64,000 nucleotides of DNA from Nitrosopumilus sp. (lineage in GTDB: Archaea > Thermoproteota > Nitrososphaeria > Nitrososphaerales > Nitrosopumilaceae). The notes beneath the pieces were generated by a model. That model was not told the origin of the DNA. It did not search any database and saw only the letters and a program-made list of their open reading frames with translations. A program made the position numbers and the translations under genes. Positions 4,947 through 55,955 of the stretch are shown here, piece after piece. The DNA lies in assembly GCA_965205675.1 (NCBI GenBank), contig OZ242186.1, positions 1,280,001 through 1,344,000 on the forward strand, in the 5' to 3' direction. Numbering within the stretch: the first letter of the stretch is position 1; every line of letters begins with the position of its first letter.

Positions 4947-5015
4947 AAAATTACTTGATGGACATTCAAAATAACCCGCTTTAAATCCAAAAAATATCTC
5001 CCTTTGTGACGACAT

Positions 5016-5696
5016 ATGAGTAGTTGTATTTTATGCGGTAATGGTAATTTTGTTAAGGTTGAGACTGAGATCGTATGCTCAAAGTGCGGTGTTATCTCAC
5101 ATTATGATACGGCAGAAACGACGCCTGTTGGCTCAAAGTCGCGTATGCCAGTACATGAAGAGCAAAAAATCGGCTCAAAGAATATCATAGTAGATGGCAT
5201 CACACTGCCACACATCAACAAAAAACGTACAGAGCAAATAATCTCAAGTCGCGACAGTCATCTTGACTCTTTTTCGAAAATCTGCTCCACTCTCGGACTG
5301 CCAAAGTATGTTACAGTAAATGCATTTGTGTTATTCCAGAAATTAAAACCGGCAAAGCTGGGGTCTGGCAAGACTGCCGTGTTCTGTATTCATCAGGCGT
5401 GTATGGATGCAGGTATAACGTACGATGAGGGGAGACTGATTGCAGTTACGAGAACGCAACTTGGTTTGAAAAGACAGATATTTCTCACAAAGGCAATATA
5501 TCAGGTAAAGCGGGTCGCACTAGAGCAGAAACTCATTGTACCCTCATCTGATGATTCACATGAAAAATATTTTCTAAGAAAGATGATTCGTCCGAACCAA
5601 ATGCGTGAGGCAGTTAAGATATCTGGCATGTTTGGAGGCAAAACCACTGACCAAAAGATGCGGCGTGTAGGGAGGTATCTTGATGCATACAACTAA
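5016..5696 (+). CDS. tfb: Truncated transcription initiation factor IIB-like protein
   Basis: N-terminal Zn ribbon CILC...EIVCSKCGVI; one cyclin-like repeat (ICSTLGLP...AVFCIHQAC); only 226 aa. Confidence 0.8.
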   Translation: MSSCILCGNGNFVKVETEIVCSKCGVISHYDTAETTPVGSKSRMPVHEEQKIGSKNIIVDGITLPHINKKRTEQIISSRDSHLDSFSKICSTLGLPKYVTVNAFVLFQKLKPAKLGSGKTAVFCIHQACMDAGITYDEGRLIAVTRTQLGLKRQIFLTKAIYQVKRVALEQKLIVPSSDDSHEKYFLRKMIRPNQMREAVKISGMFGGKTTDQKMRRVGRYLDAYN

Positions 5697-6654
5697 TGAT
5701 GATAGTAGCCTCAGCATTATTGCGCTAAGCAAGATATCGCTGCCAGAACTTGTCGTGATTCCATCGCAGTACGGCATTGAGCAGATTGTTACATCCTTTG
5801 CCCCTGATGCTGGCACTGATGAGTTGTCAATCAAAGTTGTAGAATCCAAAAACGGCTATGTTCTAGTCGATGGAATCGATGTATATTATGCTGCAAAAAA
5901 GATGCGTCTCAAGGAGATAAACGCATATGTCGTAAATGACTCTGTTGATCCCCAGATAACATACATTCGATATACAAAAAAAGACCAGCAAAATCCAATC
6001 AAGATAGTACGCCAGATGCGAAGATATGTCAAGGATAATGGTCTTCCAAAGACAATGCAGATGATGCATCTAGAACCAGTATACTCCAAAGTGTATGCCC
6101 TTGAATTTGATACAAAACTTGAAGATACATTAGATGAACTCTTTGATACGGCATACTCTAACGGGGTACGCTCCACTGCACCACTGCCAATGCTGCGGTT
6201 CATATGCAATCTCGATGAGGATGCACAGCATGTAGTAATTGGGAAACTCCAAAAACATGCAAAAGAGAACAGCGGTTACCGGTGGCCGCACAACGAGTTT
6301 CTAAAGGACATGATCCCCGAGTCTGATAATCCCTCAAAATCTGAGGGAGAGAAAAAACAAGACACTGCAAGCTCAGAGGTTACAACCTTTGAATGCACAA
6401 AGTGCAAGACTCCCCATCTGGTGCACGACGGACGGGTCGCACCATACAAGGAGCAATCCGGACTGAAGATAATGGAGGGCGATATTGCAGACCCTATGAT
6501 TTCACTTGGAAAAAAGCATGCAAAACATCTGGGAATTGATCTAGGCGATGTCCCAGAGGTGATTACTTCTGAGTCGGACTGGAAGTCAGTCACATCTAAG
6601 ATGAGGGGTAGAAAGTTTGTAGTCTTGCTTGGGGCAGAATTTAACCCCTCTTAA
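5680..6654 (+). CDS. ParB/Srx-like N-terminal domain protein with C-terminal CxxC
   Basis: IKVVESKNGYVLVDGIDVYYAAKKMRLKEINAYV matches the ParB-N pattern, with the DGxxR motif degenerate; FECTKC. Confidence 0.7.
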   Translation: MMHTTNDDSSLSIIALSKISLPELVVIPSQYGIEQIVTSFAPDAGTDELSIKVVESKNGYVLVDGIDVYYAAKKMRLKEINAYVVNDSVDPQITYIRYTKKDQQNPIKIVRQMRRYVKDNGLPKTMQMMHLEPVYSKVYALEFDTKLEDTLDELFDTAYSNGVRSTAPLPMLRFICNLDEDAQHVVIGKLQKHAKENSGYRWPHNEFLKDMIPESDNPSKSEGEKKQDTASSEVTTFECTKCKTPHLVHDGRVAPYKEQSGLKIMEGDIADPMISLGKKHAKHLGIDLGDVPEVITSESDWKSVTSKMRGRKFVVLLGAEFNPS

Positions 6655-6666
6655 TACAACGGCGCA

Positions 6667-7152
6667 ATGTATAATATGATAAGGCAAATCTTTTTTGTCC
6701 TGCAACCGTCGTCGCTGCAGGATTCCTTATCTTTACCGCTTTCTGGACTCTCCTATACAAATGAGCTGCTAATAGTGTCTTCTGCTGTTCTTGTACTCGG
6801 AGGTCTGTCAATTGGAGTGTTTTACTCTGACACTGAATCCACATCTTCAATGCTTGTTGAAATTAACAGGATTAATCGTGATATTTTGAACGAAAAGATA
6901 GATGTTATCTCTGCTGATACGTCTGCAACACACGTGGTGTTTTCTCTCAGCAATTACGGAAGTAGAGATACGGAGATAACGGCAGTACTTGACTCTGATG
7001 CAAATAGCATTGACTGTACAAGCAACAATGCAGATTCTGCTAACTTTGTGGTTCTGACTGGCAAGCACATGGAGGTCTCATGTGTACTGCAAGGAGATGA
7101 CAAGTATTATGCAGTAACTGACACGGGGCAGATTCTAAAGGTGATACCATGA
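6667..7152 (+). CDS. Archaeal pilin/FlaG-like protein
   Basis: GLS followed by a hydrophobic helix, then EKIDVI...FSLSNYGSRD beta motif; true start uncertain. Confidence 0.6.
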   Translation: MYNMIRQIFFVLQPSSLQDSLSLPLSGLSYTNELLIVSSAVLVLGGLSIGVFYSDTESTSSMLVEINRINRDILNEKIDVISADTSATHVVFSLSNYGSRDTEITAVLDSDANSIDCTSNNADSANFVVLTGKHMEVSCVLQGDDKYYAVTDTGQILKVIP

Positions 7153-8534
7153 AGTATTATTTTATGCTGATGCTGTTACTTTGTGCTGCTACTTGCATTC
7201 CTTTTGCACATGCATGGGAGTTCGGAATATTTGCACCAGGAGAGTCATACCATTATACCATATGCGATAACATAACACGCGATGCATTCACTGCAACTGC
7301 ATCAAAGTGCTATGATATGCAGATGCGCGTAATTGAGAATGTGAAGATGGATTCAGGATACGTGTGGATAATGCACGTTATAATGAATGGGTCTGATCAT
7401 GACCTGGTTTTACTTGATGAGAATTTTGATGTAACCTCATTACACAACAGATACATTGAAGAGTCGCTCTCATCTACGCTTTTCTGGCTGCCTGATGATT
7501 CTCTCAGAGAGTTTGATCCAGTTATAGGAGATATCCTTGGAAGCGTGCCATCAAAATTCAAGGATGCTGAGATCATAGTTGCAGATTTTTTGGATTATGA
7601 TGAAGGACAAAAAGAATATTCGATTTTATGGACAAATGAATATGAAAACCAAATATGGATACGCGAGGGGGTTGCACTGCCAGTTAGAGCTAGCGTGTAT
7701 TCTGAGATACATGCTGGGTTTGGAGAGAATCTTGCACACTCGTATGATCTAAAGTCGTATGTTTCTTCTGAAGAGTATCTCTTTGACCTACTTTCATCTG
7801 TGAGGTATCCTGATGATGCCTTCGTCGATGATGCCTTCGTCGATGATGCCTTCGTCGATGATGCCTTCGTCGATGATGCCTTCGTCGATGATGCCTTCGT
7901 CGATGATGCCTTCGTCGATGATGCCTTCGTCGATGATGCCTTCGTCGATGATGCCTTCGTCGATGATGCCTTTGTTGATGATGCCTTTGTTGATGATACC
8001 TTTGTCGATGATACCTTTGTCGATGATACCTTTGTCGATGATACCTTTGTCGATGATACCTTTGTCGATGATACCTTTGTCGATGATACCTTTGAGAACG
8101 AGGTATTGTCTGATGAAGAGTTCTATGGTGCAGATTTCGTTGGTGATGATTTGAGTGCGGATGAACCATCTCACCATGCTGATGATGAACCATCTCACCA
8201 TGCTGATGATGTTCTATCTGAAATTCCTGAGTTTTTCCCCTCTGAGATAGTTAATTCTTCTTTGAATGATTCTGATGTTTTGTCTTTCTCAAATGCTTCA
8301 TCGGATCTCAAACCCTCTGAAACTATGCCCTCCGAGCCAGTAGATGATATTGCAAACCCACAATCTCAATTTGATATAGACCCAAAGGATGAATCAGACT
8401 ATGTAGATGATGCGCTCCCTGGAGATAATGAAACTGAAACTCTAGAACGGGACGCTCAGAAATTACAAGATGAAGATGAACCATTTGGTTTTATTTTGTC
8501 TTTCTTTGAACCTCTTCTGGAAATTTTCAAGTGA
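7149..8534 (+). CDS. Secreted protein with acidic DD(A/T)FV pentapeptide tract
   Basis: Signal peptide ending AHA; globular domain; 19 pentapeptide repeats; C-terminal amphipathic tail. Confidence 0.8.
   Translation: MKYYFMLMLLLCAATCIPFAHAWEFGIFAPGESYHYTICDNITRDAFTATASKCYDMQMRVIENVKMDSGYVWIMHVIMNGSDHDLVLLDENFDVTSLHNRYIEESLSSTLFWLPDDSLREFDPVIGDILGSVPSKFKDAEIIVADFLDYDEGQKEYSILWTNEYENQIWIREGVALPVRASVYSEIHAGFGENLAHSYDLKSYVSSEEYLFDLLSSVRYPDDAFVDDAFVDDAFVDDAFVDDAFVDDAFVDDAFVDDAFVDDAFVDDAFVDDAFVDDAFVDDTFVDDTFVDDTFVDDTFVDDTFVDDTFVDDTFENEVLSDEEFYGADFVGDDLSADEPSHHADDEPSHHADDVLSEIPEFFPSEIVNSSLNDSDVLSFSNASSDLKPSETMPSEPVDDIANPQSQFDIDPKDESDYVDDALPGDNETETLERDAQKLQDEDEPFGFILSFFEPLLEIFK
7812..8096 (+). repeat. 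15-bp coding VNTR, 19 copies
   Basis: GATGATGCCTTCGTC x10, GATGATGCCTTTGTT x2, GATGATACCTTTGTC-type x7. Confidence 0.97.
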
Positions 8535-9010: not shown

Positions 9011-9304
9011 TTGGAGATTTACATAATCATATTTTTGGTTATACTGCTTGCCTTTTTGAGTCTGTTCCTGACACACTATGTGAAAAAATCAAGAAAGTAC
9101 GAGACAAAGGCATCATTTTATTCTGGTGCATACATGCGGCTACGCGTATGGAATATCGATGATGCCCTGAAAAGATCCACAAGATCAAAGGAGACGCGCT
9201 TTTGGGGTGATATTATACTGAGAGGCGATACAGAACTTGCAACTCGGGGAGAGCCCGGGGAGACAATACTGGATGAGCTTTTTGGTCCATCACAGAAAAC
9301 ATAA
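9011..9304 (+). CDS. Small membrane-anchored hypothetical protein
   Basis: N-terminal TM helix; TTTTTAAG 29 nt upstream. Confidence 0.6.
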   Translation: MEIYIIIFLVILLAFLSLFLTHYVKKSRKYETKASFYSGAYMRLRVWNIDDALKRSTRSKETRFWGDIILRGDTELATRGEPGETILDELFGPSQKT

Positions 9305-10088
9305 GTTCCATCTCTTCTCTGGGGTTGATGTGAATATCCGGAGAATATCCCTTAGCATATTTGTCGGCATAACAGTTCTGCTTGTAGGACAGGTCTTTGT
9401 CAATGAATTCCTTGTGAGTTTTAATGTAGAGACATCAGAGACTGCAAAGAGTGGTGGAGAGATAATCATACAAAACAACGGTGTAATTCAAGCACATGAT
9501 GTCATGGCGTACTTGAAATTTACAGACGTTCCAAAAATAACCGATCATAATTGTTTGGAGGGAATAATTGATAGCAAATACAAAACAATAACCATACACT
9601 TTGACAGATTCTCTACAAACATTGCATGCGTGATACATCTTGAGGAATTCTCAGGTGCAGATGTTACAATAACTTCCGATGATAGGACGGCGCACACCGG
9701 CAAATACCAAGAGTTGTGGGGTCTGCTTTACTTTGTATCTGCCATGTTTTTCACAGGTGCAGGACTGGTGATTTTTGCAACATACGGGTTTGCAAGGAGA
9801 TGTTACTATAAGGCGGTGTTTTACTTTGGATGTCGAGGATTTGTGCCAATGGATTGCAGTGCGGAGATGTGCTCTGATATGCAAAAAGAATTCTCAATCA
9901 AGGTCTCTGATGCTGACATATCCATATTGTATCACATCTCGAACCAAAGAAAAACACTGTACCAAATAAAAGCACATACAAAATTATCTGTATCCTATGT
10001 GGCATATCGCATCATGCGCTTGAGATGTCACGGACTGGTAGAAAAAGACAACACCCCATCAGAGTTTATTCTAAACTATTTCAGATGA
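9237..10088 (+). CDS. Two-TM protein with extracellular beta domain and C-terminal wHTH (possible membrane-bound regulator)
   Basis: Two TM segments; DISILYHI...TLYQIKAHTKLSVSYVAYRIMRLRCHGLVEK; real start probably near 9330. Confidence 0.6.
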   Translation: MQLGESPGRQYWMSFLVHHRKHKFHLFSGVDVNIRRISLSIFVGITVLLVGQVFVNEFLVSFNVETSETAKSGGEIIIQNNGVIQAHDVMAYLKFTDVPKITDHNCLEGIIDSKYKTITIHFDRFSTNIACVIHLEEFSGADVTITSDDRTAHTGKYQELWGLLYFVSAMFFTGAGLVIFATYGFARRCYYKAVFYFGCRGFVPMDCSAEMCSDMQKEFSIKVSDADISILYHISNQRKTLYQIKAHTKLSVSYVAYRIMRLRCHGLVEKDNTPSEFILNYFR

Positions 10089-10462
10089 GGTTCCTGATGA
10101 TTGTGATGCCTTGCGAGTAATTTGATTTTGTTTTTTTACTATTTTCTTTCCTCCAACATGCCTCTAATTCATTATACCAGTTATGGGGTATGATCACTTT
10201 GAAAAGTTATGCCCAAAACTTGGCATGTCTTAAAATCGATCAGATGTGTTAACAGCAACATGGGAACCGCAAACACCAAAAGGAAGATGATCCGTATGTA
10301 TCAAGCCTCATGCCTAGAATTTGTTTTTAGTTTCCATTTTTGTTCCTGATGGGGCAGATGACCTTTGCCGGTTCTGGCAAATAGCCTGAGAATGTTTCAA
10401 AAATCCCCCATCTCTTTTTCTGCGATAATTATTCCCCTTTAATACAACTCTTTCTCTACTGT

Positions 10463-11062
10463 ATGATGAGAATCCTCTCGGTTCCGACAAAAAGCCTGTT
10501 GCACGTGCCGTTTTTGAACCTCAAGGTAATCTCTGTATCACTGCGACAGATACTGTACATTGTTGTATGTGTCGTGTTACTGGCACAGGCACTTCACGGA
10601 GAAGACAATGTGCTCTTGGCAGTTCCTGCCATGCTCTTTGCAGCACTTGCCTTTGTGCCATTTAAATTCATCACACCTGAGATGCATCTGATTCATGCAC
10701 TTGCGTTTCGATTCGCCAAACCCGAACACCATTCCAGAGACAAGACAAATTCCTCAGAAATGCTCTTTGCTGGAAGACAGTCATCTCAAATACAAGAAGA
10801 GCAGCAAGAGACAGTTCAGAGATTCACGATAAGTGATCTTGGTATGCCACATACCATATCCCTTGATACTACTGAGAAGAGACAGTTCGTGCCAGTCGGA
10901 ATAGAGATTGATGGCAAAGTGCTAGTAAATACTGCGACTGAAAGACATGGCAAAGTGTGCTGTACAATAATGATTGAGAGTCTGGGACCAAAAAAGATAC
11001 GTGTGATTCGCGCAGAAGATGACTCTGTTTTGTATGATAGGAGGGTAATATTTGAGGGCTAG
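10463..11062 (+). CDS. PrgI/VirB3-like membrane protein
   Basis: VSLRQILY followed by two TMs and a TPE motif; immediately upstream of the VirB6-like gene. Confidence 0.5.
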   Translation: MMRILSVPTKSLLHVPFLNLKVISVSLRQILYIVVCVVLLAQALHGEDNVLLAVPAMLFAALAFVPFKFITPEMHLIHALAFRFAKPEHHSRDKTNSSEMLFAGRQSSQIQEEQQETVQRFTISDLGMPHTISLDTTEKRQFVPVGIEIDGKVLVNTATERHGKVCCTIMIESLGPKKIRVIRAEDDSVLYDRRVIFEG

Positions 11063-12902
11063 TCTTGATGCCGTATTGTACAGCAGCCCCATATGTAACA
11101 TAAAGAGATTTTTGCAAAGACCTCTTTCTGGAATAATTCCGGTTCCGGGCCTTGAGGCTGCCATCATACTTGCCTCTGCAATACTCACTGTGGTCTTTAT
11201 GATATCTGCCCTGAACTATATGACATCAAATGTGGAAGGAGAATTTGTCAGGCTGATCACTGACATGCCCAAATTCGACTTTCAGATAGTAGACGGGGCA
11301 GAGACTGGCAACTCTGCGTTTCTTATCTTCTCGATGCTGCGAGACTTGGCAAACTATTTCTTTGTCTTTGTTTTCATTCTTGTCGGAATACTTGTGATGT
11401 TTAAGCAAGCAGGTCTGGTCTCAAGCGAGACGATAAAAAAGATGTTTCTCGGAGCTGCTGGCGGGATAATACTATTAATGATATTTCCGTACATTTGGGA
11501 TCCGGTATCTGAAGCAGTTGAGATGTTCTCAATATCGCTTCTAAATCCAATGTACTCTTTTGACGAATCAAACCCGTGCGTCGCAGCAACTGATCCTCGT
11601 GGACTGTTGTTTGCTGAGCAGAACGCCGAGATCGGCAAGCGCTCTACGTTCTTTGGGCTGGGACTATCCACTGATGATTTGTGCAGACCTGACTTGCGAA
11701 TATCCTACATGTTTGCAAAGGTAAGGTATGGCGCAGACGTTGGAACTGCCTTTGAGACAGGCAGCGATCTTGAGGTGCTGACAAACTTTGCAAGCCAGAT
11801 ATCTGAGAGCTTTGTAACTACTATCTTTACTGGATTGACCAAAACTGTGATGCTGTTTTACATGGCTACAATGACTGCCCTGGTTGGCAATGTCCGTTAT
11901 TTGCTGGTAAATGTGATTGCAATAGCCCTGCCCTTGCTACTTGTGTTCCGCTCTCTTCCGTTTTTCTATATCGACAAGATATCAAATACGCTGCTATCGA
12001 CATGGGTTCCGCTAGTTATGGTGCCGATATTTTCCTGTCTGATAATTCTTGCAGGAACGTCAGACCTGCTTGACAGGGAAGCACAAGTATCTGACGGGGT
12101 CGACAGATATGACTTTTGGCTGCACTCCATGTCAGTAATGATGCTTGCGGTAATGATACCGATAATTGTCGCACCCATATTGGGTTCGCTCTCAAATACA
12201 ATGGGGCAGATGGTAATGTCCGGTGTGATGTCAGGAGTAATGGGTGGCGCTGCAATGGCTCAGGGCGCTGCCTCAAGGGCGGGCGGCGGAATTGCACAAA
12301 GGTTTGCAGCAGGCCGGTCTGCAATGGGACCCTCCTCGATGAGCGGCGCAATAAGTATTCCCGGAGCTGCCGGTGGATTTGCCGGCGGACTAAAGGCGGC
12401 ATTTGGCAAGGCAGGAATCGCATCAACTGCCAAGGACGTGACACATGGACTGGGAACTGGAGCCACTGGCATGATACAGTCCGATGCGTTTCAGGCTGGC
12501 CGTGCAGCTCCTGGTGTCAGCATGGGTCCTGTCAACTTTGATTCGTTTGCACGAGATGCCGGAGTGATTCCAATTAATGGCGGCATCAGACCCGGACTGG
12601 TAACACTTGCACAATCTCAAGCATCTGGTGCTGCCTCCGCAGCTCCTCCTGTTATAGTTACAGGCGGCGGCACTCTTCCGGCAGGTGAGGTCATGAGAAC
12701 AGGATCTCCGATATTTGCAGGAGGTGGCGGCACTCCGGCAGTCAGTGCACCGCAGCAAGGTGCCATGCCAAGGGGATTCTCGCATCCTCCTGCAGGTGAT
12801 GGCGGTGCGACATATACTGCTGGGGGACAAAGGGTTGGTACAAGTCCTGTTGGGAATCCAAAGGAGAAATTCAAAGGAAGTAAAGACAGGGGGAAGGTCT
12901 GA
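11052..12902 (+). CDS. VirB6/TrbL-like polytopic conjugation membrane protein
   Basis: Multiple TM helices followed by a long Gly/Ala-rich tail typical of TrbL; start uncertain. Confidence 0.65.
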   Translation: MRASLDAVLYSSPICNIKRFLQRPLSGIIPVPGLEAAIILASAILTVVFMISALNYMTSNVEGEFVRLITDMPKFDFQIVDGAETGNSAFLIFSMLRDLANYFFVFVFILVGILVMFKQAGLVSSETIKKMFLGAAGGIILLMIFPYIWDPVSEAVEMFSISLLNPMYSFDESNPCVAATDPRGLLFAEQNAEIGKRSTFFGLGLSTDDLCRPDLRISYMFAKVRYGADVGTAFETGSDLEVLTNFASQISESFVTTIFTGLTKTVMLFYMATMTALVGNVRYLLVNVIAIALPLLLVFRSLPFFYIDKISNTLLSTWVPLVMVPIFSCLIILAGTSDLLDREAQVSDGVDRYDFWLHSMSVMMLAVMIPIIVAPILGSLSNTMGQMVMSGVMSGVMGGAAMAQGAASRAGGGIAQRFAAGRSAMGPSSMSGAISIPGAAGGFAGGLKAAFGKAGIASTAKDVTHGLGTGATGMIQSDAFQAGRAAPGVSMGPVNFDSFARDAGVIPINGGIRPGLVTLAQSQASGAASAAPPVIVTGGGTLPAGEVMRTGSPIFAGGGGTPAVSAPQQGAMPRGFSHPPAGDGGATYTAGGQRVGTSPVGNPKEKFKGSKDRGKV

Positions 12903-12987: not shown

Positions 12988-14928
12988 ATGCCCATGTTAG
13001 CACTGATGCCGGGAGAAATCCAGATAATGGAGGTGCCCCTCAAGAAAAACAAGACGCTTTCTGCAAGCAACACAAGAATTGTCGTATATGGGAATGACGG
13101 CATGACGTTTGCAGCACCCATAGAAACGGTGCGTTCTGTAACTCCAATAAAAAAAGATGCCGTGCGAATTCAGCATTACTCCCAAAAGGCAGACGGCTCA
13201 GCCAAAAGGGAGTTTTCTGATTACAAGTTACATGATTCTAAATATTCAGCAGCCCAGGTATGCCACAAGATAGTCCGGGAATATGAGAAACTGGAGACCT
13301 TTGCAACAAATGCCAAGGGACTGCTAATCCTAAAGCCCCACGAACACATCATCACCACATACAGTGATGCCAAGACAAACCAAGGAAAGGGACTGCTCTA
13401 TGTGACAAACCTCGGAATCGCACTGGAGGTCCCTGACGAGGGAGTCGTATGTGATGTGCCATTTGAGAACTTTTCACTGGTTACCGCACTCAAAAAGAAA
13501 AAGATACGCATTGTATGGTATGAGGGATCCTCAAAGTTCAAGTTTGACTTTGAGATAGGTGCAGGGCGCGATGATATAATGTCAATGATGCAAAATGCAC
13601 TGGACCAGCACCGCACCAATACCGGATATCATTTTTTACAGCTGGAACAAAAATATTCCAAGCTGACACCTGACGAGTTTTATGCACTGGCCCAATCTGC
13701 AAACCCCGAATTTTTTGACTATCTGAGACGCCACGCAATTCACACCTTTGGGTTTTATGCTGTAAAGTTTACCGACGGCGATGAAAGCGTAATAATGGCC
13801 TGCAAGATGCTGGGATATCCAATAGAGATGATATCTGATATTTCAGATGAGGAGATGAATCAGAGAAAGACCACATATGACTCTGCATTAAGATACACTA
13901 ATTTCATTGCAGAGTGGAGGGGACAAAAGGCAGAGCTTGACTCACTTGAGAAGCAGTGCAGTACTGCTGATGATCTCAAAGTATTGCAAAAGACTGAAAA
14001 GTACAAAAAAATTCAAGAGTCCATGGATAGTCTCTGCAGAGAGAACAGCGAGTTTGGAGATTACGGCGCATACAAAATGGAGCTGCAGGCATCAGCTTGG
14101 GGACTCCAAGCAGATGACAGACGCTCTCAAATAATCTATGAAAAGTGGTGTGAGAGCAATCCTTTACCTGACATAAGTGATGACGTATATGATGAGTCGT
14201 GGGTGCGATATCTCTCTGAGAAACTAAACAACTCAAAGGGAAGAAATCCGCTTGTTACGTCACATCCGCACTTTGAGCACCTGCAAGACGACATTAAAAC
14301 CAAAAATCGAAACGCATCCACACTTGAGATGTTCACTGCACCTGAGGGAATCCCAGATGAGGATATTTACAACAACTGCTGGCATGACAGGCGCTCCAAG
14401 ATGTGGTATGTCCAAAATGACAATTTAAATGAGCATCTACGCAATGCCGCGGTATCTGATCCTGACCACTCACAGCACGTGTGTGGCAGACGTGTATGGG
14501 GATTCTCTGAAGATGTCGTTGAGATGTTTTGCGGACTGCCGGCAGTATCAGTGCAGTATGATGAAAAGGACTATTATTATCGTGTAAAGGTCAGCAGAAG
14601 GACAGGCCGTGAGGTTAATTATTTATCAAAGGCAATCCTTCCATTTATCCTGCCAATTCTTAGAGAGGAGGATGTTACAGAAGAGAGGGCATCACATAAT
14701 GGAAAATGGGTCCGTGAAACAAGCGCCCTTGCATACTCCGTTGACTCTACAGGTTCTGAATTAAATCGCACCCCAAAAGAGTACGAACTGTACTGCAAAA
14801 AATGGGGCTTTGTACATCTGCCAATAGCTGAGAGGGTGAGACGCGCCGTGTTTTCTGTAATGTCTGGCATTACACTAGAGGAGATAGAGACAGAGAAAGG
14901 AATGCCTGAAGAACTGACTAATCTTTGA
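12988..14928 (+). CDS. Hypothetical protein with two N-terminal PH/GRAM-like domains
   Basis: LMPGE...LSASNTRIVV and LKPHE...GLLYVTNLGIAL...VPFENFSLV patterns. Confidence 0.55.
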   Translation: MPMLALMPGEIQIMEVPLKKNKTLSASNTRIVVYGNDGMTFAAPIETVRSVTPIKKDAVRIQHYSQKADGSAKREFSDYKLHDSKYSAAQVCHKIVREYEKLETFATNAKGLLILKPHEHIITTYSDAKTNQGKGLLYVTNLGIALEVPDEGVVCDVPFENFSLVTALKKKKIRIVWYEGSSKFKFDFEIGAGRDDIMSMMQNALDQHRTNTGYHFLQLEQKYSKLTPDEFYALAQSANPEFFDYLRRHAIHTFGFYAVKFTDGDESVIMACKMLGYPIEMISDISDEEMNQRKTTYDSALRYTNFIAEWRGQKAELDSLEKQCSTADDLKVLQKTEKYKKIQESMDSLCRENSEFGDYGAYKMELQASAWGLQADDRRSQIIYEKWCESNPLPDISDDVYDESWVRYLSEKLNNSKGRNPLVTSHPHFEHLQDDIKTKNRNASTLEMFTAPEGIPDEDIYNNCWHDRRSKMWYVQNDNLNEHLRNAAVSDPDHSQHVCGRRVWGFSEDVVEMFCGLPAVSVQYDEKDYYYRVKVSRRTGREVNYLSKAILPFILPILREEDVTEERASHNGKWVRETSALAYSVDSTGSELNRTPKEYELYCKKWGFVHLPIAERVRRAVFSVMSGITLEEIETEKGMPEELTNL

Positions 14929-15171: not shown

Positions 15172-17907
15172 ATGCTGTATGTAGTGATTCTTGCCACGCT
15201 CCTCATTGCAGGAATTGTAGGCGTGAGCGTGATTGCAGTTGATAACGTAACTAGTGTCTCAAATACTGCAACTGATTCTGCAAAAATCGACAACCTCAGA
15301 AATTCAGAATACATTGATGCATATTTTGATGGTGCAGATATCCACCTGGAGAACCGCGGTCGAGATACCTCGGAGATTGCAATGATACGTTTCTATGATG
15401 ATAAAGGAGATGAGGTGAGAATAATCCACCTTCCTGATGGGACTGACCGTGTATTTGGTGGCGACATGCCTTCTACTGCATCAACTGATCTGACATATGA
15501 TGATTCGCAGCTCTTGCCACACGACCCGCAAATCATTACTGTTCCAATTCACAACTCTACTGTATCGGGGGAAATAATAACAAAATATGGCAACGTGATC
15601 CCGATAAGAAACATGCATCCTGATAGCCTTGGTGATGAAACCGGTGATGGCAGTAACACAAACGGTACTGCCACTGTAAATGGACTCGGATTAAACTCAA
15701 GGATTGCCCAAAAAGATTTTGATGGCGTCATTGTTACAGGTAGTTCTAATTCTGTCGGAGATGCTCATGACGTTGTGCCGTATCTGTCGATTCCCCGCAC
15801 AACAGCGGATTCCCGCCCATACGTTGCAATTATTGGAGATACCGATCCGGTGACGGTACATAACATTCCCACTCTTGATTCTCGTTATGAATTACGTGAT
15901 GGTTACCTACACGATAGAAATGCCCAGAATCTGCTGTTGTTTTCAAATAACACTGTTGTTGGTGGTCAAAATAGTTTTAGCATCCGTAGCGGCTACTATG
16001 AAGTTACAGGAAACGGCACAACCATTTTCAAAATAGACGAGTCGCTTTACGGTAGAATACTTGATCTTAGCGGTTCTGTTCCATCAGGCAGCTCTTTGAA
16101 AATTGTAACATCGGAGAAAAACCTCAATGACGGTGACATATATCAGTCTCTGCTTGGCCGGGATGACCCACCTCAGCATGAATATGGGTATTATATTGGA
16201 GACATGACGTGTACTGATCTAGTTCGTGAAGGATCTTATGATTTCAATTACCGGCGTGATCTGTTTCGGTCTATAGACCAATATGATTTGAAATGCCTTA
16301 TGGATGAAGTACCGATTTCACACCCGTCCAATGTTTATGTCTATCATGAAGAGACATTTGTTAAAAGAGAATATGGTTCTAATTGTGGATCTAATCCTAG
16401 CCTCCCGGGCTGTTTTATCGGGGTTAACCCCCGCTGGCAGCATGGTACAATTACTCTGAGCACAATAACAGCTACACCATCTCACAGCGATGTTCCAAAT
16501 GCATTATACATAGATCTGATTTCAGAGAAAAACCAAACTGGGGTTCACATGCTAAGTGGAATGGTCGTCAATATGGACGATGCTTTTTCGCAAAAGTGTT
16601 ACCCATGTACCAAATATGATATATGGAACATTGATAATCGCCCTGAGACACCATCATATCACGTATTTGATGATGCGGTCCTAGCAGACAGGACTTGGGA
16701 ATTTGGTCCTGCAATCAATGAAGAATTTGTGTTTCCAATTACTAATTCTTATATCATAATTGAGCCAAACGGCCAGACAGTTAGGATTCGTGCATCAAAT
16801 GATTCTCATTCCAATGGTGACTTTGACTCCTCCGTTCTTTCGATAACTAATATTGATCCTTCTACGCCGTTTCGCATAATGAAGGACGACAAGGTTATGG
16901 CTACAGGGGTATCGAATCGTAACGGTGGCATTTATACCGTCTCGCTGAATCTTGATACTGATATAGGCGATAAGACAGACGAGGGATGGAAATTGCATCT
17001 GTATCCTGAATCATCTGTTCATCGCGATCTCTTTGACTTTGTGATCTTTGACCCCATAAACGATCAGAAAATACAGAAAACACACACTGATGATGATGAG
17101 CGCACGGTGTATGTCACTCATACATACGTGCGTCTACCATTGGTCGGGGGGATAAATGTTACTGATATGAGGCTTCTTGAAGATGATGGTGGGAATTTAA
17201 TGCCACTGAATCTGGACTATCTGAATAAATACTATGACGGAAACACTATCGAGGTTCCTATCATTCCGGGATATGATTCCATTGACTTTTATGCAAACGG
17301 CATACATGCAAATATCAAATATGTTGACGTTTTGGGCCGCCCTGAAATTATGATTGCCGAACCCGACTCATCGCATGTCAGTTACATACATCCTTCCCGC
17401 GACATACGTTCAGTTGAAACTCGAGTTGGTACTACTGCATATGCCATCGCAACATCTGCTGGTACCATGCATGCCATTGTGTCTGAGACACTGTCAGGCA
17501 GTGCAACAATCACAAACAAATATGATTTACAAAAGATTCCACCTCCTCCTCCGCCCCCAAGGAGATATGATCCTCTTACCGGCTGGGTCGAAGTCTATGT
17601 AAATGGAGATCTTCAGAAAAGGACGGAGTTGGGTATAGACGCATTTCCTGACTTTACTAACTCCCATGATCGAAGCGGCCGGACTGTAACGGTTGGTGTG
17701 GAATACGCGTATCCGACCACTTTCATGCAGGCAACAGTGTCAGTTGATGTAGAACCGGGAGATTTTGTAGAGTTTTATCTGTATGGTCACATACAAGGAG
17801 ACATTGAAGAGTATGTGGCGCCACGTGGATGGCGAATTGTCTCTGAATCAGGAGAATCAAGTGCCCATGTGACCCTTCACAGCGCATCAATTCTAACCGG
17901 CCAGTAG
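15172..17907 (+). CDS. Large pilin-like adhesin (911 aa)
   Basis: N-terminal hydrophobic helix + IHLENRGRD pilin-like domain; beta-rich body; poly-Pro linker. Confidence 0.65.
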   Translation: MLYVVILATLLIAGIVGVSVIAVDNVTSVSNTATDSAKIDNLRNSEYIDAYFDGADIHLENRGRDTSEIAMIRFYDDKGDEVRIIHLPDGTDRVFGGDMPSTASTDLTYDDSQLLPHDPQIITVPIHNSTVSGEIITKYGNVIPIRNMHPDSLGDETGDGSNTNGTATVNGLGLNSRIAQKDFDGVIVTGSSNSVGDAHDVVPYLSIPRTTADSRPYVAIIGDTDPVTVHNIPTLDSRYELRDGYLHDRNAQNLLLFSNNTVVGGQNSFSIRSGYYEVTGNGTTIFKIDESLYGRILDLSGSVPSGSSLKIVTSEKNLNDGDIYQSLLGRDDPPQHEYGYYIGDMTCTDLVREGSYDFNYRRDLFRSIDQYDLKCLMDEVPISHPSNVYVYHEETFVKREYGSNCGSNPSLPGCFIGVNPRWQHGTITLSTITATPSHSDVPNALYIDLISEKNQTGVHMLSGMVVNMDDAFSQKCYPCTKYDIWNIDNRPETPSYHVFDDAVLADRTWEFGPAINEEFVFPITNSYIIIEPNGQTVRIRASNDSHSNGDFDSSVLSITNIDPSTPFRIMKDDKVMATGVSNRNGGIYTVSLNLDTDIGDKTDEGWKLHLYPESSVHRDLFDFVIFDPINDQKIQKTHTDDDERTVYVTHTYVRLPLVGGINVTDMRLLEDDGGNLMPLNLDYLNKYYDGNTIEVPIIPGYDSIDFYANGIHANIKYVDVLGRPEIMIAEPDSSHVSYIHPSRDIRSVETRVGTTAYAIATSAGTMHAIVSETLSGSATITNKYDLQKIPPPPPPPRRYDPLTGWVEVYVNGDLQKRTELGIDAFPDFTNSHDRSGRTVTVGVEYAYPTTFMQATVSVDVEPGDFVEFYLYGHIQGDIEEYVAPRGWRIVSESGESSAHVTLHSASILTGQ

Positions 17908-18411: not shown

Positions 18412-18585
18412 TTGACACGTTGGAAAAAAGATGAGAGTGATTTTTTAGTAAGATTATCAGATGATGGAAGACACAGTACAATTTGCAGAATACCAAAACC
18501 GATCTTGCAATTCCTAAATAATCCAGAAGCTATTAGGTTTGTAATTGAGGGTAAGAAGATCACAGTCAAAAGAGGTTTGAAATAG
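18412..18585 (+). CDS. Small AbrB-like protein (57 aa, not in the ORF track)
   Basis: TTG start; MTRWKKDESDFLVRLSDDGRHSTICRIPKPILQFLNNPEAIRFVIEGKKITVKRGLK; stop overlaps the MTase start. Confidence 0.65.
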   Translation: MTRWKKDESDFLVRLSDDGRHSTICRIPKPILQFLNNPEAIRFVIEGKKITVKRGLK

Positions 18586-22189: not shown

Positions 22190-22193
22190 TGGT

Positions 22194-38840: not shown

Positions 38841-38926
38841 TAAATCTTTGTTTGCAATCTTTTATGAGAATGATGACACTGTATCACAAAAAACGGGCTT
38901 TAACTAGAACCGCTCCATGACATCCC

Positions 38927-39552: not shown

Positions 39553-39596
39553 CGACAAATTATGCCCTTTAAATTCAATATGCACTGGCATGGTCA

Positions 39597-43991: not shown

Positions 43992-44103
43992 TGAATACGA
44001 ATACGCAAAATGCCACCGGCATCAGCATAAGATCCCGACTATATGCACCCCGGACTCTTTTCATGATTTTTGCCTTTAAATTCAAACCATACTATCCATT
44101 GCA

Positions 44104-44403
44104 ATGATTTCCAAAAGAAAAGGCGACGATTTATCCGAAGTCATAAGCGGTCCTCTGGGCTATTTTGTAATCGGCATCGTCGTCATAGGAATAGGTATTG
44201 GGGGATACGGGTATGTCATTCCGGATTCAGAAGATGATGAAAGTGATGACGCTATAGCACTCTTTTCCTTTGTTACAAATGTTGCAGGGCAGCTCAAGAT
44301 ACTGCTCTTTACCATTGCAGGACTTGTGATAATAGGGGGAAGTATAATGACTGGTCTCATACTGATACTCATCCCAGTTCAAAGACGCTGCAATACACGG
44401 TAA
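44104..44403 (+). CDS. Small two-TM protein, VirB2/pilin-like
   Basis: Two hydrophobic helices; own TTTAAA promoter. Confidence 0.45.
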   Translation: MISKRKGDDLSEVISGPLGYFVIGIVVIGIGIGGYGYVIPDSEDDESDDAIALFSFVTNVAGQLKILLFTIAGLVIIGGSIMTGLILILIPVQRRCNTR

Positions 44404-44409: not shown

Positions 44410-44802
44410 ATGCAGTTCCTGCTACCTTTTTTTATCTCTTTTTTGGCATCAATTAATGCCGTAATGCTAAATACCGTACTTGGAGGATATGGAGTGTACG
44501 TTGCACTAGGGATTTTTCTTGCAGCATTTGCATGTGATTTTGCATCCACGGTATCTGTAAAAAATGCAAAGTCTCTTGAAGCAAATCCTGTCGTGCGAAG
44601 ACTGGGAAACCATTTCAAATTTCATACCTCGCTGGCTATCATAGGTGTGATTAGTATGACTATTCAGGTCCTAGTGTATGTTATTTTTGATACTGCAATA
44701 GTGTCTTATTTTATTGCATCCCTGCATCTTTATGCAATACTCTCAAACCTTCACGTCAGAAAATATTCTTCCTTAAAATCAAAAGGAATACAGAACATGT
44801 GA
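44410..44802 (+). CDS. Small polytopic membrane protein (DUF5658-like)
   Basis: DFAST...EANPVV motif, four TMs. Confidence 0.55.
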   Translation: MQFLLPFFISFLASINAVMLNTVLGGYGVYVALGIFLAAFACDFASTVSVKNAKSLEANPVVRRLGNHFKFHTSLAIIGVISMTIQVLVYVIFDTAIVSYFIASLHLYAILSNLHVRKYSSLKSKGIQNM

Positions 44803-45305
44803 TGATAATAAGTATACAAAACGTTGTTGCAAATGCACAAATTACAAGATGTGACGAAGATACCGTTCTCAAAAAAATACCAGAGTCAGAATACCATCCA
44901 AACGGATTTCCGGCAATTGGAATCCGGAAGAAACGTGTGAAAATCTGGCTTTACAAATCAGGCAAGATAGTCAGCGCAGGCGCCAAATCAAGAGAGATTG
45001 CAATAGGTGTAATAATGGATACAATACAGAGGCTCTCAAGTCTTGGATTTGCAATCAAGGTAAGGTCTGCTCCCAGAATATCACTAGTTGTGGCAAACAT
45101 CAAACTTGACGGGTATCTGCAACGCTCAAAACTGCAAAGCATGACTGGAGTCTATTCCAACGAAAAGTTTCAGGCAGACACATTTCATTTTAAGGAGTAT
45201 AAGACAAACGTGCGCATATTCAAAAACAAAAAGATTGGGATGAGTGCACCCTCAGTTGAGGCAATAGTCTTTATGGTAAAAAAACTGCAAGAATGCACGG
45301 TATGA
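44799..45305 (+). CDS. tbp: Divergent TATA-box-binding protein
   Basis: ISIQNVVA...EYHPNGFPAI...LYKSGKIVSAGAKS repeat 1; degenerate repeat 2 (SLVVA...YSNEKF...IFKNKKI). Confidence 0.88.
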   Translation: MMIISIQNVVANAQITRCDEDTVLKKIPESEYHPNGFPAIGIRKKRVKIWLYKSGKIVSAGAKSREIAIGVIMDTIQRLSSLGFAIKVRSAPRISLVVANIKLDGYLQRSKLQSMTGVYSNEKFQADTFHFKEYKTNVRIFKNKKIGMSAPSVEAIVFMVKKLQECTV

Positions 45306-49121: not shown

Positions 49122-49122
49122 A

Positions 49123-51879: not shown

Positions 51880-52321
51880 ACAGGACAGGATGCGGTTTTT
51901 CCACTTGCGGCATGTATCCTTGGATGCGGCACGTACATGTACCTTTTGTGGAACCTTTGGTTTTAGATTCCATTTGTGCATCAAAGGACGCACATGAGTG
52001 ATATGATATGTAATGCGTGTTCTGTAAAATATGAATTGTATCAGTTTCTTTGGAGTCATGCCGTCTGAAATTTTCTTAAATGCACGCTCTATTTTTTGTA
52101 ATTTTTTGTGTGAAATTAATGGCAGACGGCCAGAACGAGGGGGGGTCCTCCAGGCCCTCCAATCCATATTTTTCAAATGAATCAAGCCAATTCCTTACAG
52201 AATTATATAGACCACTTGCGTAATTATAGAAATTTTTTCTCAAATTTTGTATTTTAACAGAATTCATACCTGAAAATTCAAATTTCTCAACCAATTTTAA
52301 AAATCCTGCAACAAAATTCAT
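51880..52321 (-). pseudogene. IS630-family transposase remnant (HTH part, frameshifted)
   Basis: VRNWLDSFEKYGLEGLEDPP; YHITHVRPLMHKWNLKPKVPQKVHVRAAS. Confidence 0.7.
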
Positions 52322-53820: not shown

Positions 53821-54594
53821 TTAAATCATACATTCACTGCCGCAGGGACTATCTACATCAATCATTGGCAGTTTCTTTTTCTGCTTCATCATTTTATCAA
53901 TATCTCGAAGTGAATATCCTTTGGGTGCCAATCTCTGAGTTTCAAAATGCTTTCCTTGTTCTTCAATCTTCATAGAATATTTGAATAATTTTGGATGCTT
54001 CTCATGAATTTCTCCCCATCTTTGCATGTTGTTATATGGACAGAAATAACAACCACTTTTTTCAGGGGTAGGTAATCTTGCACTTTTGATCAAATCAATG
54101 CATCCTTCACGATTAATCTTGAAATCAATTAGCGGATACAAATTAGTTACATAATCTTCTCTAGCAGGTTTCATTCTGTGAACCTCGCCATAGTCAATTC
54201 CCATGTATTGGTACACATGTGATTGTAGTTTACGATAAAATGCATGAATTGGAATTACTTTGAAATCTCTTGTACACCATCTCCACACTTGAGATGGAAT
54301 AACTTCACGTCTTAAACACTTGTCTTATAATGCTTCTTTTTTTCTATTCATTACAATTTCAAATGGAATGTTTCTTCTTTTGAGATATCTCTCCATTACA
54401 TCAAGATACTGGTATGTTTCAGGCATTTCATCGCCTGTATCTGAAAACACAACATAATCTAACGGGAATTTATTTTTGACCAAAAAAACAATTAGTGCAG
54501 TAGAGTTTACTCTGCCACCATAACTTACAATATGCTTTGCATCTTTTTGGCGCTTGATATTTCTTGAGTCCAATATTCTTTCTTGTACTAACAT
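53821..54594 (-). pseudogene. PAPS-reductase-family protein split by an in-frame TAA at 54325
   Basis: VSYGGRVNS, FSDTGDEMPETY | RWCTRDFKV, YPLID, KSGCYFCP; both ORFs share a frame. Confidence 0.85.
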
Positions 54595-54771
54595 CCATTC
54601 TGCATTCTCCTGTATGTTAACAAGTCCTGTAATCTAATAGAACATAAACTCCCCATTTCCTGCATGGATAGTAAAAACAATTTAATCTCTTCTGCATTTG
54701 GTATATGTATACAACTTGAATATAAAAATTAAAGAAATCTAAATATAGAAAAATAATCTTTTTCTTATTCC

Positions 54772-55071
54772 TCAAAGAAGGTCCGGATCCTCTTGTGACT
54801 CAGATGAATCCTTGATGCCCTGTGTATTTTTTTGATATGATGTGATTAATTCTTTTGGAGCAATAATGTCATGTCTTGGAATTTTCACATCCTCTGCAAC
54901 ATTGATTCCAAACTCGTCACAAATTGCTTTCTGATGCATCATCACAAACTCTACATCCTGCAGCAGTCTCTGGATCTTTATCCTTGCTCTGTACCTTGCA
55001 TCCTTTCTTTGCAATACAGAAAACGAGAGGGGTGTCTGAATTACTCTCTTGTCCTTTTCAGTCAGGCACAT
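54772..55071 (-). CDS. Putative ParR-like adaptor
   Basis: 99 aa; coupled downstream of the actin-like gene; basic N-terminal half, acidic tail. Confidence 0.5.
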   Translation of the reverse strand: MCLTEKDKRVIQTPLSFSVLQRKDARYRARIKIQRLLQDVEFVMMHQKAICDEFGINVAEDVKIPRHDIIAPKELITSYQKNTQGIKDSSESQEDPDLL

Positions 55072-55916
55072 TTTTCCTGAGCCTTTTTGAGCATTCCAAG
55101 CGCGTTTGAGAATACGGGGTTTTTTGCAATTCTCACATTTTGGATAATGTCGTTTTTTATCTCAGAGACTAGTTTTGGAATCAGTGCCCCTCCTCCTGCA
55201 CAGATTACGGGAATCTTGGGATAGTCAATTACTACCTTTTCTAAAGAATCTGAAATGTTTGCTGCAAGTATCTTTCTTGCCTCTGCAAGCTGTGGGGTGT
55301 TCTTTGAGAATATCTCAGGATTCATGTATTCTGATCTTGACTCTGTGATGGCACTTGTTATCTCCCCGACCCCACACGGTACGGTCTTGGCGTAACTTAT
55401 GCTCTGATGAGTTACAGCCATTATCTCCGTGGTCCCATGTCCTATATGGCACACTATCCCGTCTACTACTCCCTCGTTATCCAACGTAGCCTTTGCCTGA
55501 TACATCAGACCAAAGAACTTTGGCGCAAATCTATGGTTTACAGAATCCTTTATTTTCTGGGTGTGCCCCCTTGCGTCATATGGAATTCCTGCAACAATCA
55601 TACACTCTGAATAGCTTTGAGGTCCCTCATATACCGCATCTCTTTTGTGCAATATGACCCGGTCTAGCGCATACCTTACCAGTTCCATGTAATCAGAAAT
55701 AGATGTTGGAGTTCCCCTATACACCGGAGTCTTTAGCACCATTGACTTTACATGCTCTTGTCTTACTGCATCCTCTCCAACCAAAATAATATCTTCTGAT
55801 TCCAAATCCATGCCCTTGCCTTGTGCAATGATTGATGGGAACACAAATGTGCCATGTGCTGTGGCAACTTTTACTGAACCGGTTCCAATGTCCAGCCCTA
55901 CACAATTCTTATTCAT
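55062..55916 (-). CDS. parM: Actin-like ATPase, ParM/StbA family
   Basis: GLDIGTGSVK phosphate-1, HIGHGTTE phosphate-2, CAGGGA adenosine motif, NPVFSNALG. Confidence 0.88.
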   Translation of the reverse strand: MNKNCVGLDIGTGSVKVATAHGTFVFPSIIAQGKGMDLESEDIILVGEDAVRQEHVKSMVLKTPVYRGTPTSISDYMELVRYALDRVILHKRDAVYEGPQSYSECMIVAGIPYDARGHTQKIKDSVNHRFAPKFFGLMYQAKATLDNEGVVDGIVCHIGHGTTEIMAVTHQSISYAKTVPCGVGEITSAITESRSEYMNPEIFSKNTPQLAEARKILAANISDSLEKVVIDYPKIPVICAGGGALIPKLVSEIKNDIIQNVRIAKNPVFSNALGMLKKAQEKCA

Positions 55917-55955
55917 GATATCATCAGAACATTTTGAATTTAAAGCGGTATTTTG

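Follow-up and report, generated by a model that had tools for sequence, protein, structure and literature searches.

A TFIIB-ParB operon is reported as a hallmark of all thaumarchaeal integrated conjugative elements (ICEs) (Krupovic et al. 2019, PMC6563490), and the proposal that an ICE TFIIB 'could alter the promoter specificity' has already been made (Abby et al. 2018, PMC5797428). The ICEs described in these two studies have VirB4 and VirD4, a FlaI/PilT-type ATPase, pilin-like genes, TFIIB upstream of ParB, an integrase, and restriction-modification (RM) cargo, and the element analyzed here is alike in these respects. In Sulfolobales, TFB3, a truncated TFB paralog with a Zn ribbon, is described as activating the DNA-exchange regulon of ups pili and Ced (PMC6101591, PMC6101594), and TFB3 target promoters are reported to carry a conserved extra motif (PMC5817253). 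In Halobacterium NRC-1, several tbp and tfb genes are located on pNRC100 and pNRC200, and TBP-TFB combinations were hypothesized to read promoter classes (PMC2121645). Here, we analyzed a 64,000-nt stretch (the window; G000:C1:1280001-1344000) of the genome of Nitrosopumilus sp. GCA_965205675.1 (contig OZ242186.1; source genome G000), which sits within a large ICE of a Nitrosopumilus-type ammonia-oxidizing archaeon. The host is a thaumarchaeon that encodes archaeal AmoA/amoA (E 1.9e-116) and whose same-genus relatives are titled Nitrosopumilus sp. This ICE encodes three basal factors, namely a full-length TFB, a short TFB (sTFB), and a TBP, and it carries a conserved, directional, element-restricted core-promoter type that is unlike that of the host at the position of the B recognition element (BRE). 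Unless marked as genome coordinates, positions refer to the window.

VirB4 was matched at E <= 1e-15 in 62 of 401 genomes of the order, the close relatives being G283 (79% identity), G384 (55%), G265 (53%), and G337 (46%). From five related Nitrosopumilus elements, a set of 36 promoter sites representing 11 orthologous groups was curated by eye, with a twelfth group at 38899. The resulting consensus comprised an A- or T-run, three to four G/C bases (mostly C), TTTAAW, and (T/R)CAAA. At least two of the three nucleotides before the box were G/C at 31/36 sites and all three at 16/36, C occupied position -1 at 25/36, and 19/36 sites lay 28 to 29 nt from the start codon. Orthologs in G283 (52 to 79% protein identity) kept these boxes despite divergence of the sequence between box and start codon, and boxes were likewise kept in G384, G337, and G265 at 27 to 55% protein identity. 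Exact TTTAAA was not enriched in the window (33 found, 35.9 expected); the signal lies in the flanks and in the position of the box. SSC followed by TTTAAAT was clustered, with six of the 11 occurrences in the 2.01-Mb genome falling in the window and two more approximately 40 kb downstream. We also scored G000 with a held-out position weight matrix (PWM) trained on the 24 sites of the other genomes. At a threshold of 16 bits this returned 14 matches in the whole genome, nine of which fell in the ICE island (7.1% of the genome); one of the five outside matches had an open reading frame (ORF) start 20 to 44 nt downstream. Sequences simulated from the second-order Markov composition of the 103-kb ICE part contained 0.10 matches on average and at most 2 in 300 runs, versus nine observed. 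At a locus that contributed no training sites (L127), the motif before the homologs of gene 10463 and VirB4 scored 17.9 and 22.2 bits. The consensus, as represented in the matrix, was asymmetric and without a dyad, as a directional core promoter would be expected to show. Collectively, the PWM, the simulations, and the cross-genome sites bear out the claim, first made in a preliminary description of the window, that backbone promoters are distinct from the host consensus, and add that they are conserved across elements.

Along the window, and on the forward strand unless stated, the motif headed gene 2223-3089 at a distance of 27 nt as AAAATCGGG-TTAAAT-ACAA (2186-2209; held-out PWM 9.7), of which TTAAAT-ACAAT is conserved in G283 and G384, and sTFB at 36 nt as AACCCGC-TTTAAA-TCCAAA (4970-4993; 18.3 bits), of which 'GC-TTTAAA' is kept in G283, G384, and G337. 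The site TTCCCC-TTTAAT-ACAAC (10428-10451; held-out PWM 17.5), 25 nt before the gene at 10463, was conserved in G283, G384, G337, and L127, and a promoter-like GCCCAC-TTAATA, 26 nt before the gene at 15172, was conserved in G283. Ahead of the pilus-type operon at 21548 stood TTTTCTGCC-TTTAAA-TTTGA (21509-21532; 29 nt; conserved in G283 and G337). Both pilin-like genes were preceded at 29 nt, gene 25768-26310 by TTTTTTCGT-TTTAAA-TAGTA (25729-25752), which is nearly identical in G283 with a different spacer, and gene 29455-29928 by TTTTTCTTGC-TTTAAA-TCC (29416-29439), which is conserved in G283. For the twelfth group, AAAAAACGGGC-TTTAAC (38889-38912) was located 28 nt before the ATG at 38927, and its G283 ortholog read AAAAATGGGC-TTTAAT at 29 nt. 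The VirB4-VirD4 pair followed 29 nt behind TTATGCCC-TTTAAA-TTCAA (39558-39581; held-out PWM 17.1), conserved in G283, G384, G337, G265, and L127 (22.2 bits in the latter), and the operon 44104/44410/TBP followed 29 nt behind TTTTTGCC-TTTAAA-TTCAAA (44065-44088; held-out PWM 17.2), conserved in G283 and G337. On the reverse strand, AAAATACCGC-TTTAAA-TTCAAAA (55931-55954; held-out PWM 19.0) lay 28 nt before the ParM-like gene and was conserved in G283 and G337. The TBP gene itself is probably also headed by the motif, as a possible internal promoter, TTCTTCC-TTAAAA-TCAAAA (44763-44786; 13.2 bits), occurred 26 nt before its GTG at 44799; ACGCC-TTAAAA-TAAAAA occupies the same place in G283, and GCCCGC-TTAAAA-GCAAAA precedes TBP at locus L124.

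The motif further headed a repeated array gene and an AbrB-like gene, and ICE-class promoters recurred beyond the window at genome 1357746, 1363591, 1382798, and 1384570. The motif was found neither in the TFB-ParB-MCM replication module nor before cargo genes, the RM gene being preceded by GAAAACC-ATTAAA. Within the element, the class was thus limited to the part encoding the pilus, the type IV secretion system (T4SS), and partition, in agreement with the dispersed pilus/T4SS regulon proposed earlier. All nine motif coordinates given in the preliminary description proved correct: its six TTTAAA sites lay at 29, 29, 29, 29, 29, and 28 nt, the TTTAAC at 38899 lay 28 nt before the ATG at 38927, and the sites at 4980 and 10438 lay at 36 and 25 nt. 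Two sets of copies were also seen. A 112-bp stretch at genome 197106-197217 is 95.5% identical to window 38841-38952, including the 38899 promoter and gene start, and a dispersed repeat of 55 to 80 bp lies just upstream of the copied stretch, at window ~38763-38840. A gene family whose products start with MPKLQ occurs at genome 1384600-1384995, 201754 (reverse strand), and 1588347 (reverse strand), each member behind an ICE-class promoter and two of them outside the island; the 131-aa copy appears AbrB/SpoVT-like by eye.

To place this class against the host, promoters of the remaining genome were profiled. Across 627 non-redundant ATG starts, an A-rich tract was found at -35 to -32 and a T/A box at -29 to -24, and expectation-maximization on 1062 host upstream regions returned mAAArA-TTTTWAA with a mode at -38 to -35. 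These box positions indicate that host mRNAs are largely leaderless and that a spacing of 28 to 29 nt is ordinary; the fixed distance noted earlier therefore reflects host-wide leaderless geometry. Exact TTTAAA seemed to peak in the host 30 nt ahead of start codons; the peak was traced to ~17 copies of one insertion sequence (IS), in which an identical box precedes ORF B, and was removed by de-duplication. Host tRNA promoters, a set that is independent of start-codon calls, had a TATA-like box in 25/40 cases, with BREs of the GAAAAAC/GGAAAGA type. The number of purines at -6 to -1 was 4.2 for host tRNA genes (n = 25), 3.3 for host protein genes (n = 328), and 1.7 for ICE sites (n = 36), and the C count at -4 to -1 was 0.8, 0.6, and 2.25, respectively. 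A TATA-anchored count made under one rule, with a gene caller that missed genes below 100 aa, found three G/C of three before the box at 5/17 ICE-region heads versus 9/328 host heads (Fisher p 2.4e-4). Rather than the same C-rich BRE, the host consensus thus carries a purine/A-rich one.

The ICE TBP (44799-45305, forward strand; 168 aa) combines a conserved repeat 1 with a strongly diverged repeat 2. Pfam TBP (PF00352) reported repeat 1 only (E 4e-12, residues 4-79), TBPs in the PDB were matched (e.g., 1pcz, E 7e-17), and BLASTP aligned 161 residues, repeat 2 included, to a host TBP at 29% identity. In an AlphaFold2 (AF2) model with a predicted local distance difference test score (pLDDT) of 89 and a predicted template modeling score (pTM) of 0.81, the S1-H1-S2-5-H2 order occurred twice with both repeats complete, and the top 44 Foldseek hits were all TBP chains (template modeling score 0.76 to 0.83 over ~168 columns). 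Sequence and model together identify this protein as a TBP that is very divergent yet complete in both repeats. In repeat 2, the SGK..TGAK motif has been lost, and ICE homologs share a conserved pattern of their own. TBP repeats each carry paired DNA-kinking aromatic residues. At the positions expected for these residues, the Phe of FP(A/G) in repeat 1 and F124 in repeat 2 were invariant in the alignment, and the second aromatic position was Y in repeat 1 and F, T, or Y in repeat 2. The host genome encodes three canonical TBPs and five full-length TFBs. In a tree of 31 rows, from which one row of an unpublished genome was left out, the five ICE TBPs grouped as a single clade (SH-aLRT 100). Branches of 0.94 and 2.64 substitutions per site set this clade apart from 26 cellular TBPs, and its members were very divergent among themselves. 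The divergent TBP noted earlier at 44799 is therefore supported concordantly by Pfam, PDB, and AF2/Foldseek, is a conserved backbone gene in related elements, and belongs to a long-branch, ICE-only clade apart from the cellular TBPs.

The second factor, sTFB (5016-5696, forward strand; 226 aa), comprises a Zn ribbon, a linker, cyclin repeat 1, and approximately half of repeat 2, with no C-terminal helix-turn-helix (HTH). At the sequence level it had no Pfam TFIIB match and no paralog in its own genome, and a PDB profile search gave only an insignificant match to the TFIIB Zn ribbon 1pft (E 1.9). The CxxC-n-CxxC residues C4, C7, C21, and C24 were invariant in six homologs, and the AF2 model shows a three-strand ribbon there. 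Mean pLDDT was 65; the ribbon and five helices at 81-170 were well predicted (helices, pLDDT 76 to 89), and the C-terminal 181-226 formed three short helices with pLDDT of ~43. The top 26 Foldseek hits were TFIIB, Brf1, or archaeal TFB (best E 2e-4), with low template modeling scores because the domains are loosely placed. Using hhalign, sTFB 83-226 was collinear with host TFB 123-272 of 305, weakly so (E 0.005, probability 7%), with cyclin repeat 1 placed on host TFB 123-215; the aligned span covers cyclin 1 and the first helices of cyclin 2 and ends before the C-terminal HTH (host helix GVTEVTIRN). A second cyclin repeat with the BRE-reading HTH is thus absent from sTFB. Given that the Pfam, PDB-profile, and paralog searches failed and the hhalign match is weak, its identity rests on fold, and sTFB is a truncated TFB at the fold level only. 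The earlier assignment of a truncated TFB at this position accordingly stands for the modeled ribbon and first cyclin repeat and does not extend to sequence-level proof. The family is small, with 12 cluster representatives among 5.8 billion, none of which carries a Pfam domain.

The preliminary description overlooked a TFIIB-ParB pair upstream of the window. A divergent, full-length ICE TFB with ribbon and two repeats is encoded at genome 1263147-1263941 (PF00382, 1.3e-17), 17 kb upstream of the window, and overlaps the start of a ParB gene (1263911-1264780; ParB_N, 2e-11); an NT5C-like gene and a gene for an MCM helicase come next. Its HTH is near that of the host (GVTDVSVRN versus GVTEVTIRN). 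A TFIIB homolog directly 5' of a ParB-like gene, the ICE hallmark reported by Krupovic et al. (2019), is therefore present in this element, albeit outside the window, and so is their VirB4/TrbE plus VirD4/TraG ATPase pair.

Homologs of both window-encoded factors were found in related elements. G283, G384, and G337 encode sTFB (38 to 57% identity) and TBP (27 to 56%) homologs in the same relative positions, such that both occur in all four related elements with enough sequence (G283, G384, G337, and G000); in the fragmented G265, TBP was found on a 2.8-kb contig. A pattern scan of 185,579 species genomes recovered six ICE-type TBP loci, all in Nitrosopumilus metagenome-assembled genomes, two of which were new. 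Among distant ICE families (10 loci, 40 kb each), the TBP profile matched in 3/10 and the sTFB profile in 2/10, and the family PWM gave four matches in G358 and zero to one in each other locus. A whole-genome TBP-profile search of five distant genomes detected extra divergent TBP-like ORFs in G358, G325, and G292, none of them near VirB4. Factors and motif co-occurred in every close relative; in G358, motif-like sites occur without a nearby factor. Within 20 kb of VirB4, weak to good TBP-profile matches were seen in G313, G310, and G355. VirB4 loci of other families (L111-L116 and L121-L122, in G313, G310, and G232) had 56 to 68% G+C over 40 kb.

We consider it evenly balanced whether the ICE-class promoters are read by a private initiation complex made up of the ICE TBP and at least one ICE TFB. 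That these factors read the motif is suggested because factors and motif co-occur in every close relative, because the sTFB gene, the TBP operon, and probably the TBP gene sit behind the motif, and because sTFB retains the ribbon, linker, and TBP-facing cyclin repeat while the TBP repeat touched by TFB has changed. In TFB-TBP structures, the TBP-facing side of TFB is the cyclin repeat, and the TBP repeat that is changed here is the one that TFB touches. By this account, sTFB, which keeps the linker, would dock RNA polymerase through its Zn ribbon and contact TBP through its first cyclin repeat, the remodeled TBP repeat 2 and the retained sTFB cyclin 1 would form a matched pair, and the C-rich upstream and CAAA downstream flanks would provide contacts replacing the canonical BRE. 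Such a dedicated complex, formed on ICE-class promoters, would then switch the transfer regulon as a unit and in a self-reinforcing manner, making it the archaeal equivalent of a sigma factor encoded by a phage or plasmid. Tentatively, and with some reserve, we propose that this private kit of remodeled TBP, HTH-less TFB, and full-length TFB may, with its non-canonical core promoter, which occurs nearly exclusively at the transfer genes and at the genes for the factors, constitute a self-reinforcing on/off conjugation switch.

Several observations weigh against a private initiation complex. The assignment of sTFB as a TFB combines a medium-confidence model with a weak hhalign match, and sTFB has lost the HTH with which canonical TFBs read the BRE, so it cannot be a BRE reader by the known mechanism. 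As the full-length TFB has a host-like HTH and sTFB has none, neither stood out as having an altered BRE reader. The promoter class is also heterogeneous, with A-run and T-run subtypes, given that only 5/11 held-out G000 sites reached 16 bits, four scoring 8 to 10 and two 1 to 7. In G358, whose VirB4 is 29% identical, four motif-like sites occur with no TBP or TFB match within 20 kb either side, and the nearest divergent TBP-like ORF is 107 kb away. Regarding the contrast with the host, the ICE set was picked by eye and p-values of the compositional difference are therefore inflated, a few host promoters (9/328) also have the G/C triplet, nor is C at -1 rare among host tRNA promoters. The feature itself is real and conserved, and the proposed mechanism is plausible.

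Possible, although in our view unlikely, is that the promoter class is real but read by the host's own TBP paired with one of its five TFB paralogs, the flanks being the site of an ICE repressor or activator that gates transfer. The ICE TBP and TFBs would then act elsewhere, e.g., in the replication module, or would titrate or redirect the factors of the host. Three host TBPs and five full-length TFBs could give alternative specificities, and archaeal regulators commonly bind over BRE and TATA. Candidate ICE DNA binders exist, namely the gene at 9237-10088, which has a weak winged-helix match, and the AbrB-like gene, itself preceded by the motif; the G358 motif without a nearby TBP or TFB and the lack of an HTH in sTFB also fit host-read promoters. 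Set against this, the consensus is asymmetric with no dyad symmetry, the conserved bases abut the TATA box where TFB and TBP touch DNA, and TBP and sTFB are kept with the motif in every close relative, both genes lying behind it.

It is improbable that the motif is simply the ordinary strong promoter of the ICE lineage, derived from a higher-GC former host or from GC drift and having no special reader, with the TBP and TFBs as selfish or accessory paralogs comparable to those of haloarchaeal megaplasmids. Such an origin would fit the G+C content of the ICE (40 to 45% versus 33.7% for the genome), the spacing shared with the host, and the plasmid-borne tbp and tfb described without private promoters in Halobacterium NRC-1 (PMC2121645). 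However, composition-matched simulations predicted 0.10 matches where nine were observed, and the bases flanking the C tract are AT-rich, which argues against general GC drift. The ICE replication module, of similar GC, lacks the motif, and conservation holds down to 27 to 40% protein identity. Finally, that TTTAAA boxes occur near starts by chance in an AT-rich genome and were chosen by eye, as the lack of TTTAAA enrichment (33 versus 35.9) and the by-eye choice of the earlier sites might suggest, is scarcely credible and is refuted by the held-out PWM and the simulations, as well as by the SSC+TTTAAAT clustering, the one-rule count, and cross-genome conservation.

The element extends beyond the limits of 4975-55950 initially assigned to it, which proved too narrow given conserved synteny and motif promoters beyond both sides. 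G000 is a single contig of 2.01 Mb with 33.7% G+C genome-wide versus ~40% in the window, and the raised G+C spans genome ~1.25 to 1.41 Mb, well past both window ends. Conserved ICE genes reach from genome ~1.263 Mb to at least 1.385 Mb. The genes at 8-4510, together with upstream replication and integrase-side genes, are syntenic in related elements, and the left end of the element therefore lies before 4975. On the other side, relatives share the ParM gene and a tandem gene array, and motif-bearing promoters continue up to genome 1384570. A tyrosine-recombinase ORF is located at genome 1248359-1250032; neither tRNA-based nor flank-to-flank repeat searches recovered attachment sites or flanking direct repeats, returning only IS copies. 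A tRNA-Leu(taa) at window 27299-27386 and a tRNA-Phe(gaa) at genome 1261574-1261656, both on the reverse strand, lie inside the island, in a genome with five tRNA-Phe calls; these may be integration targets or element-borne tRNAs.

The backbone genes described next are on the forward strand unless stated. Gene 2223-3089 lies behind an ICE-class promoter. Three conserved genes 3' of sTFB (5680-6654, 6667-7152, and 7149-8534) have no Pfam family and are syntenic in G283, G384, and G337; the gene directly after sTFB was considered as a ParB and rejected, having no detectable similarity to the ICE ParB and no Pfam family. Conserved membrane and large backbone genes (10463-11062, 11052-12902, 12988-14928, and 15172-17907) were delineated by synteny and transmembrane (TM) predictions and likewise have no Pfam family. 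The pilus-type operon (21548-25743), with orthologs in G283 and G337, encodes a 6-TM protein (21548-22189), a T2SSE/FlaI-type ATPase (22194-23861; Pfam T2SSE, 6.5e-29), and a 9-TM platform-like protein (23755-25743), the roles of the two membrane proteins being putative. Pilin-like genes follow at 25768-26310 and 29455-29928, both behind ICE-class promoters, and a paralogous copy of the latter, promoter included, is present at genome 1036022-1036275. The VirB4-like ATPase (39597-41438) and VirD4/TraG-like coupling ATPase (41439-43991) were supported by Pfam P-loop_TraG (3.9e-15) and TraG-D_C (5.4e-5), with orthologs at 46 to 79% and 50 to 73% identity, respectively. The operon that ends in TBP comprises 44104-44403, 44410-44802, and 44799-45305. 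On the reverse strand, a ParM/actin-like gene (55062-55916; Pfam MreB_Mbl, 9e-8), 60 to 76% identical in G283, G337, and L127, is accompanied by a downstream small gene (54772-55071). Also encoded in the window are several small proteins whose one hydrophobic helix is N-terminal, along with large proteins of secreted type and two polytopic membrane proteins, a set that would fit a pilus/T4SS module. The ORFs 38927-39151 and 39040-39552 overlap in different frames and are both conserved in G283, representing either a frameshift or two genes.

Following ParM, a tandem array of a repeated gene pair (56605-64000, forward strand) belongs to the same element and continues to ~genome 1382000, with homologous arrays after ParM in G283, G337, and L127. 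Its unit of ~1.9 kb contains ORFs of 330 and ~160 to 176 aa with no Pfam family, and a third repeated array gene (~140 to 149 aa, starting MEQ.EH) has ICE-class promoters at genome 1357746 and 1363591. Besides IS copies, the window holds two cargo segments, both on the forward strand. A low-GC segment (18585-21257; GC 31 to 33%) encodes a DNA methyltransferase (18585-20168; Pfam N6_N4_Mtase, 5e-14) and an adjoining gene; it is 88 to 90% identical in G283 but at a different position there, and has no ICE-class promoter. The second (36271-38739), identified by Pfam, encodes a methylase fused to a BsuBI/PstI-type restriction enzyme, is inverted and moved in G283, and has a host-like promoter (GAAAACC-ATTAAA) at a distance of 30 nt. 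Between the replication module and the window, a low-GC segment at genome 1274176-1278701 encodes a type III-like RM pair of methylase and Res helicase-endonuclease. Repeats were also noted: an IS with an rve transposase at window 27667-28742 (~17 genome copies), a ~320-bp repeat resembling a miniature inverted-repeat transposable element at window 51889-52208 (>30 genome copies at 92 to 97% identity), and a 725-aa ORF at window 1-1901 (from genome 1279418) with internal tandem repeats of ~465-nt period and 92 to 98% identity.

How archaeal conjugative elements regulate their transfer is essentially unknown, and ever since the haloarchaeal genomes it has been asked whether multiple TBP and TFB paralogs stand for as many separate classes of promoter. 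This ICE offers a compact, testable system in which three factor genes and approximately a dozen conserved promoters, differing from those of the host at defined bases, come with natural variants in at least five elements. Should the link between factors and promoters be true, it would supply orthogonal promoter/factor parts for archaeal genetics and an example of a mobile element bringing TBP itself, not TFB alone. Compared with the thaumarchaeal ICEs described, in which TFIIB and the idea of altered promoter specificity are already published, the present element adds a TBP, a further TFB that is truncated, and a promoter class with a defined consensus. The words 'TBP' and 'TATA' are absent from the main texts of PMC6563490 and PMC5797428, and 'promoter' from that of PMC6563490, although supplementary tables may list TBP. 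With the same proviso for TBP, literature searches and these two main texts yielded no TBP encoded by an ICE or other mobile genetic element, no second, HTH-less TFB, and no ICE promoter consensus.

Unlike Sulfolobales TFB3, sTFB still has cyclin repeat 1 and some of repeat 2, is encoded on a mobile genetic element with its own TBP, and has no detectable sequence relation to TFB3. The cyclin core is missing from TFB3, which works in concert with TFB1/TBP. TFB3 is chromosomal and ultraviolet-induced, and sTFB, with its cyclin repeat, falls outside the TFB3 type as commonly defined by absence of that core. Halobacterium NRC-1 resembles the present case in that replicons carry tbp and tfb genes and that specific TBP-TFB combinations are hypothesized to read different classes of promoter (PMC2121645). 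In contrast, the haloarchaeal factors are close paralogs that act genome-wide, mostly on the chromosome, whereas here a long-branch, ICE-only TBP clade accompanies a promoter class almost confined to the element. At the DNA level, eukaryotic BREu and BREd consist of a G/C-rich element ending in C upstream of TATA and a second element just downstream, both contacted by the TFIIB cyclin repeats; ICE promoters may resemble these in general layout. Bacterial phages and plasmids encode alternative sigma factors with matching promoters on their own genes. Similarly, the ICE promoter class was host-distinct and confined to the element, and although protein family and domain of life differ, a functional analogy with these sigma factors may exist. 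If true, the ICE factors and their promoters would give archaea a first defined analogue of the sigma factor and cognate promoter of a mobile element.

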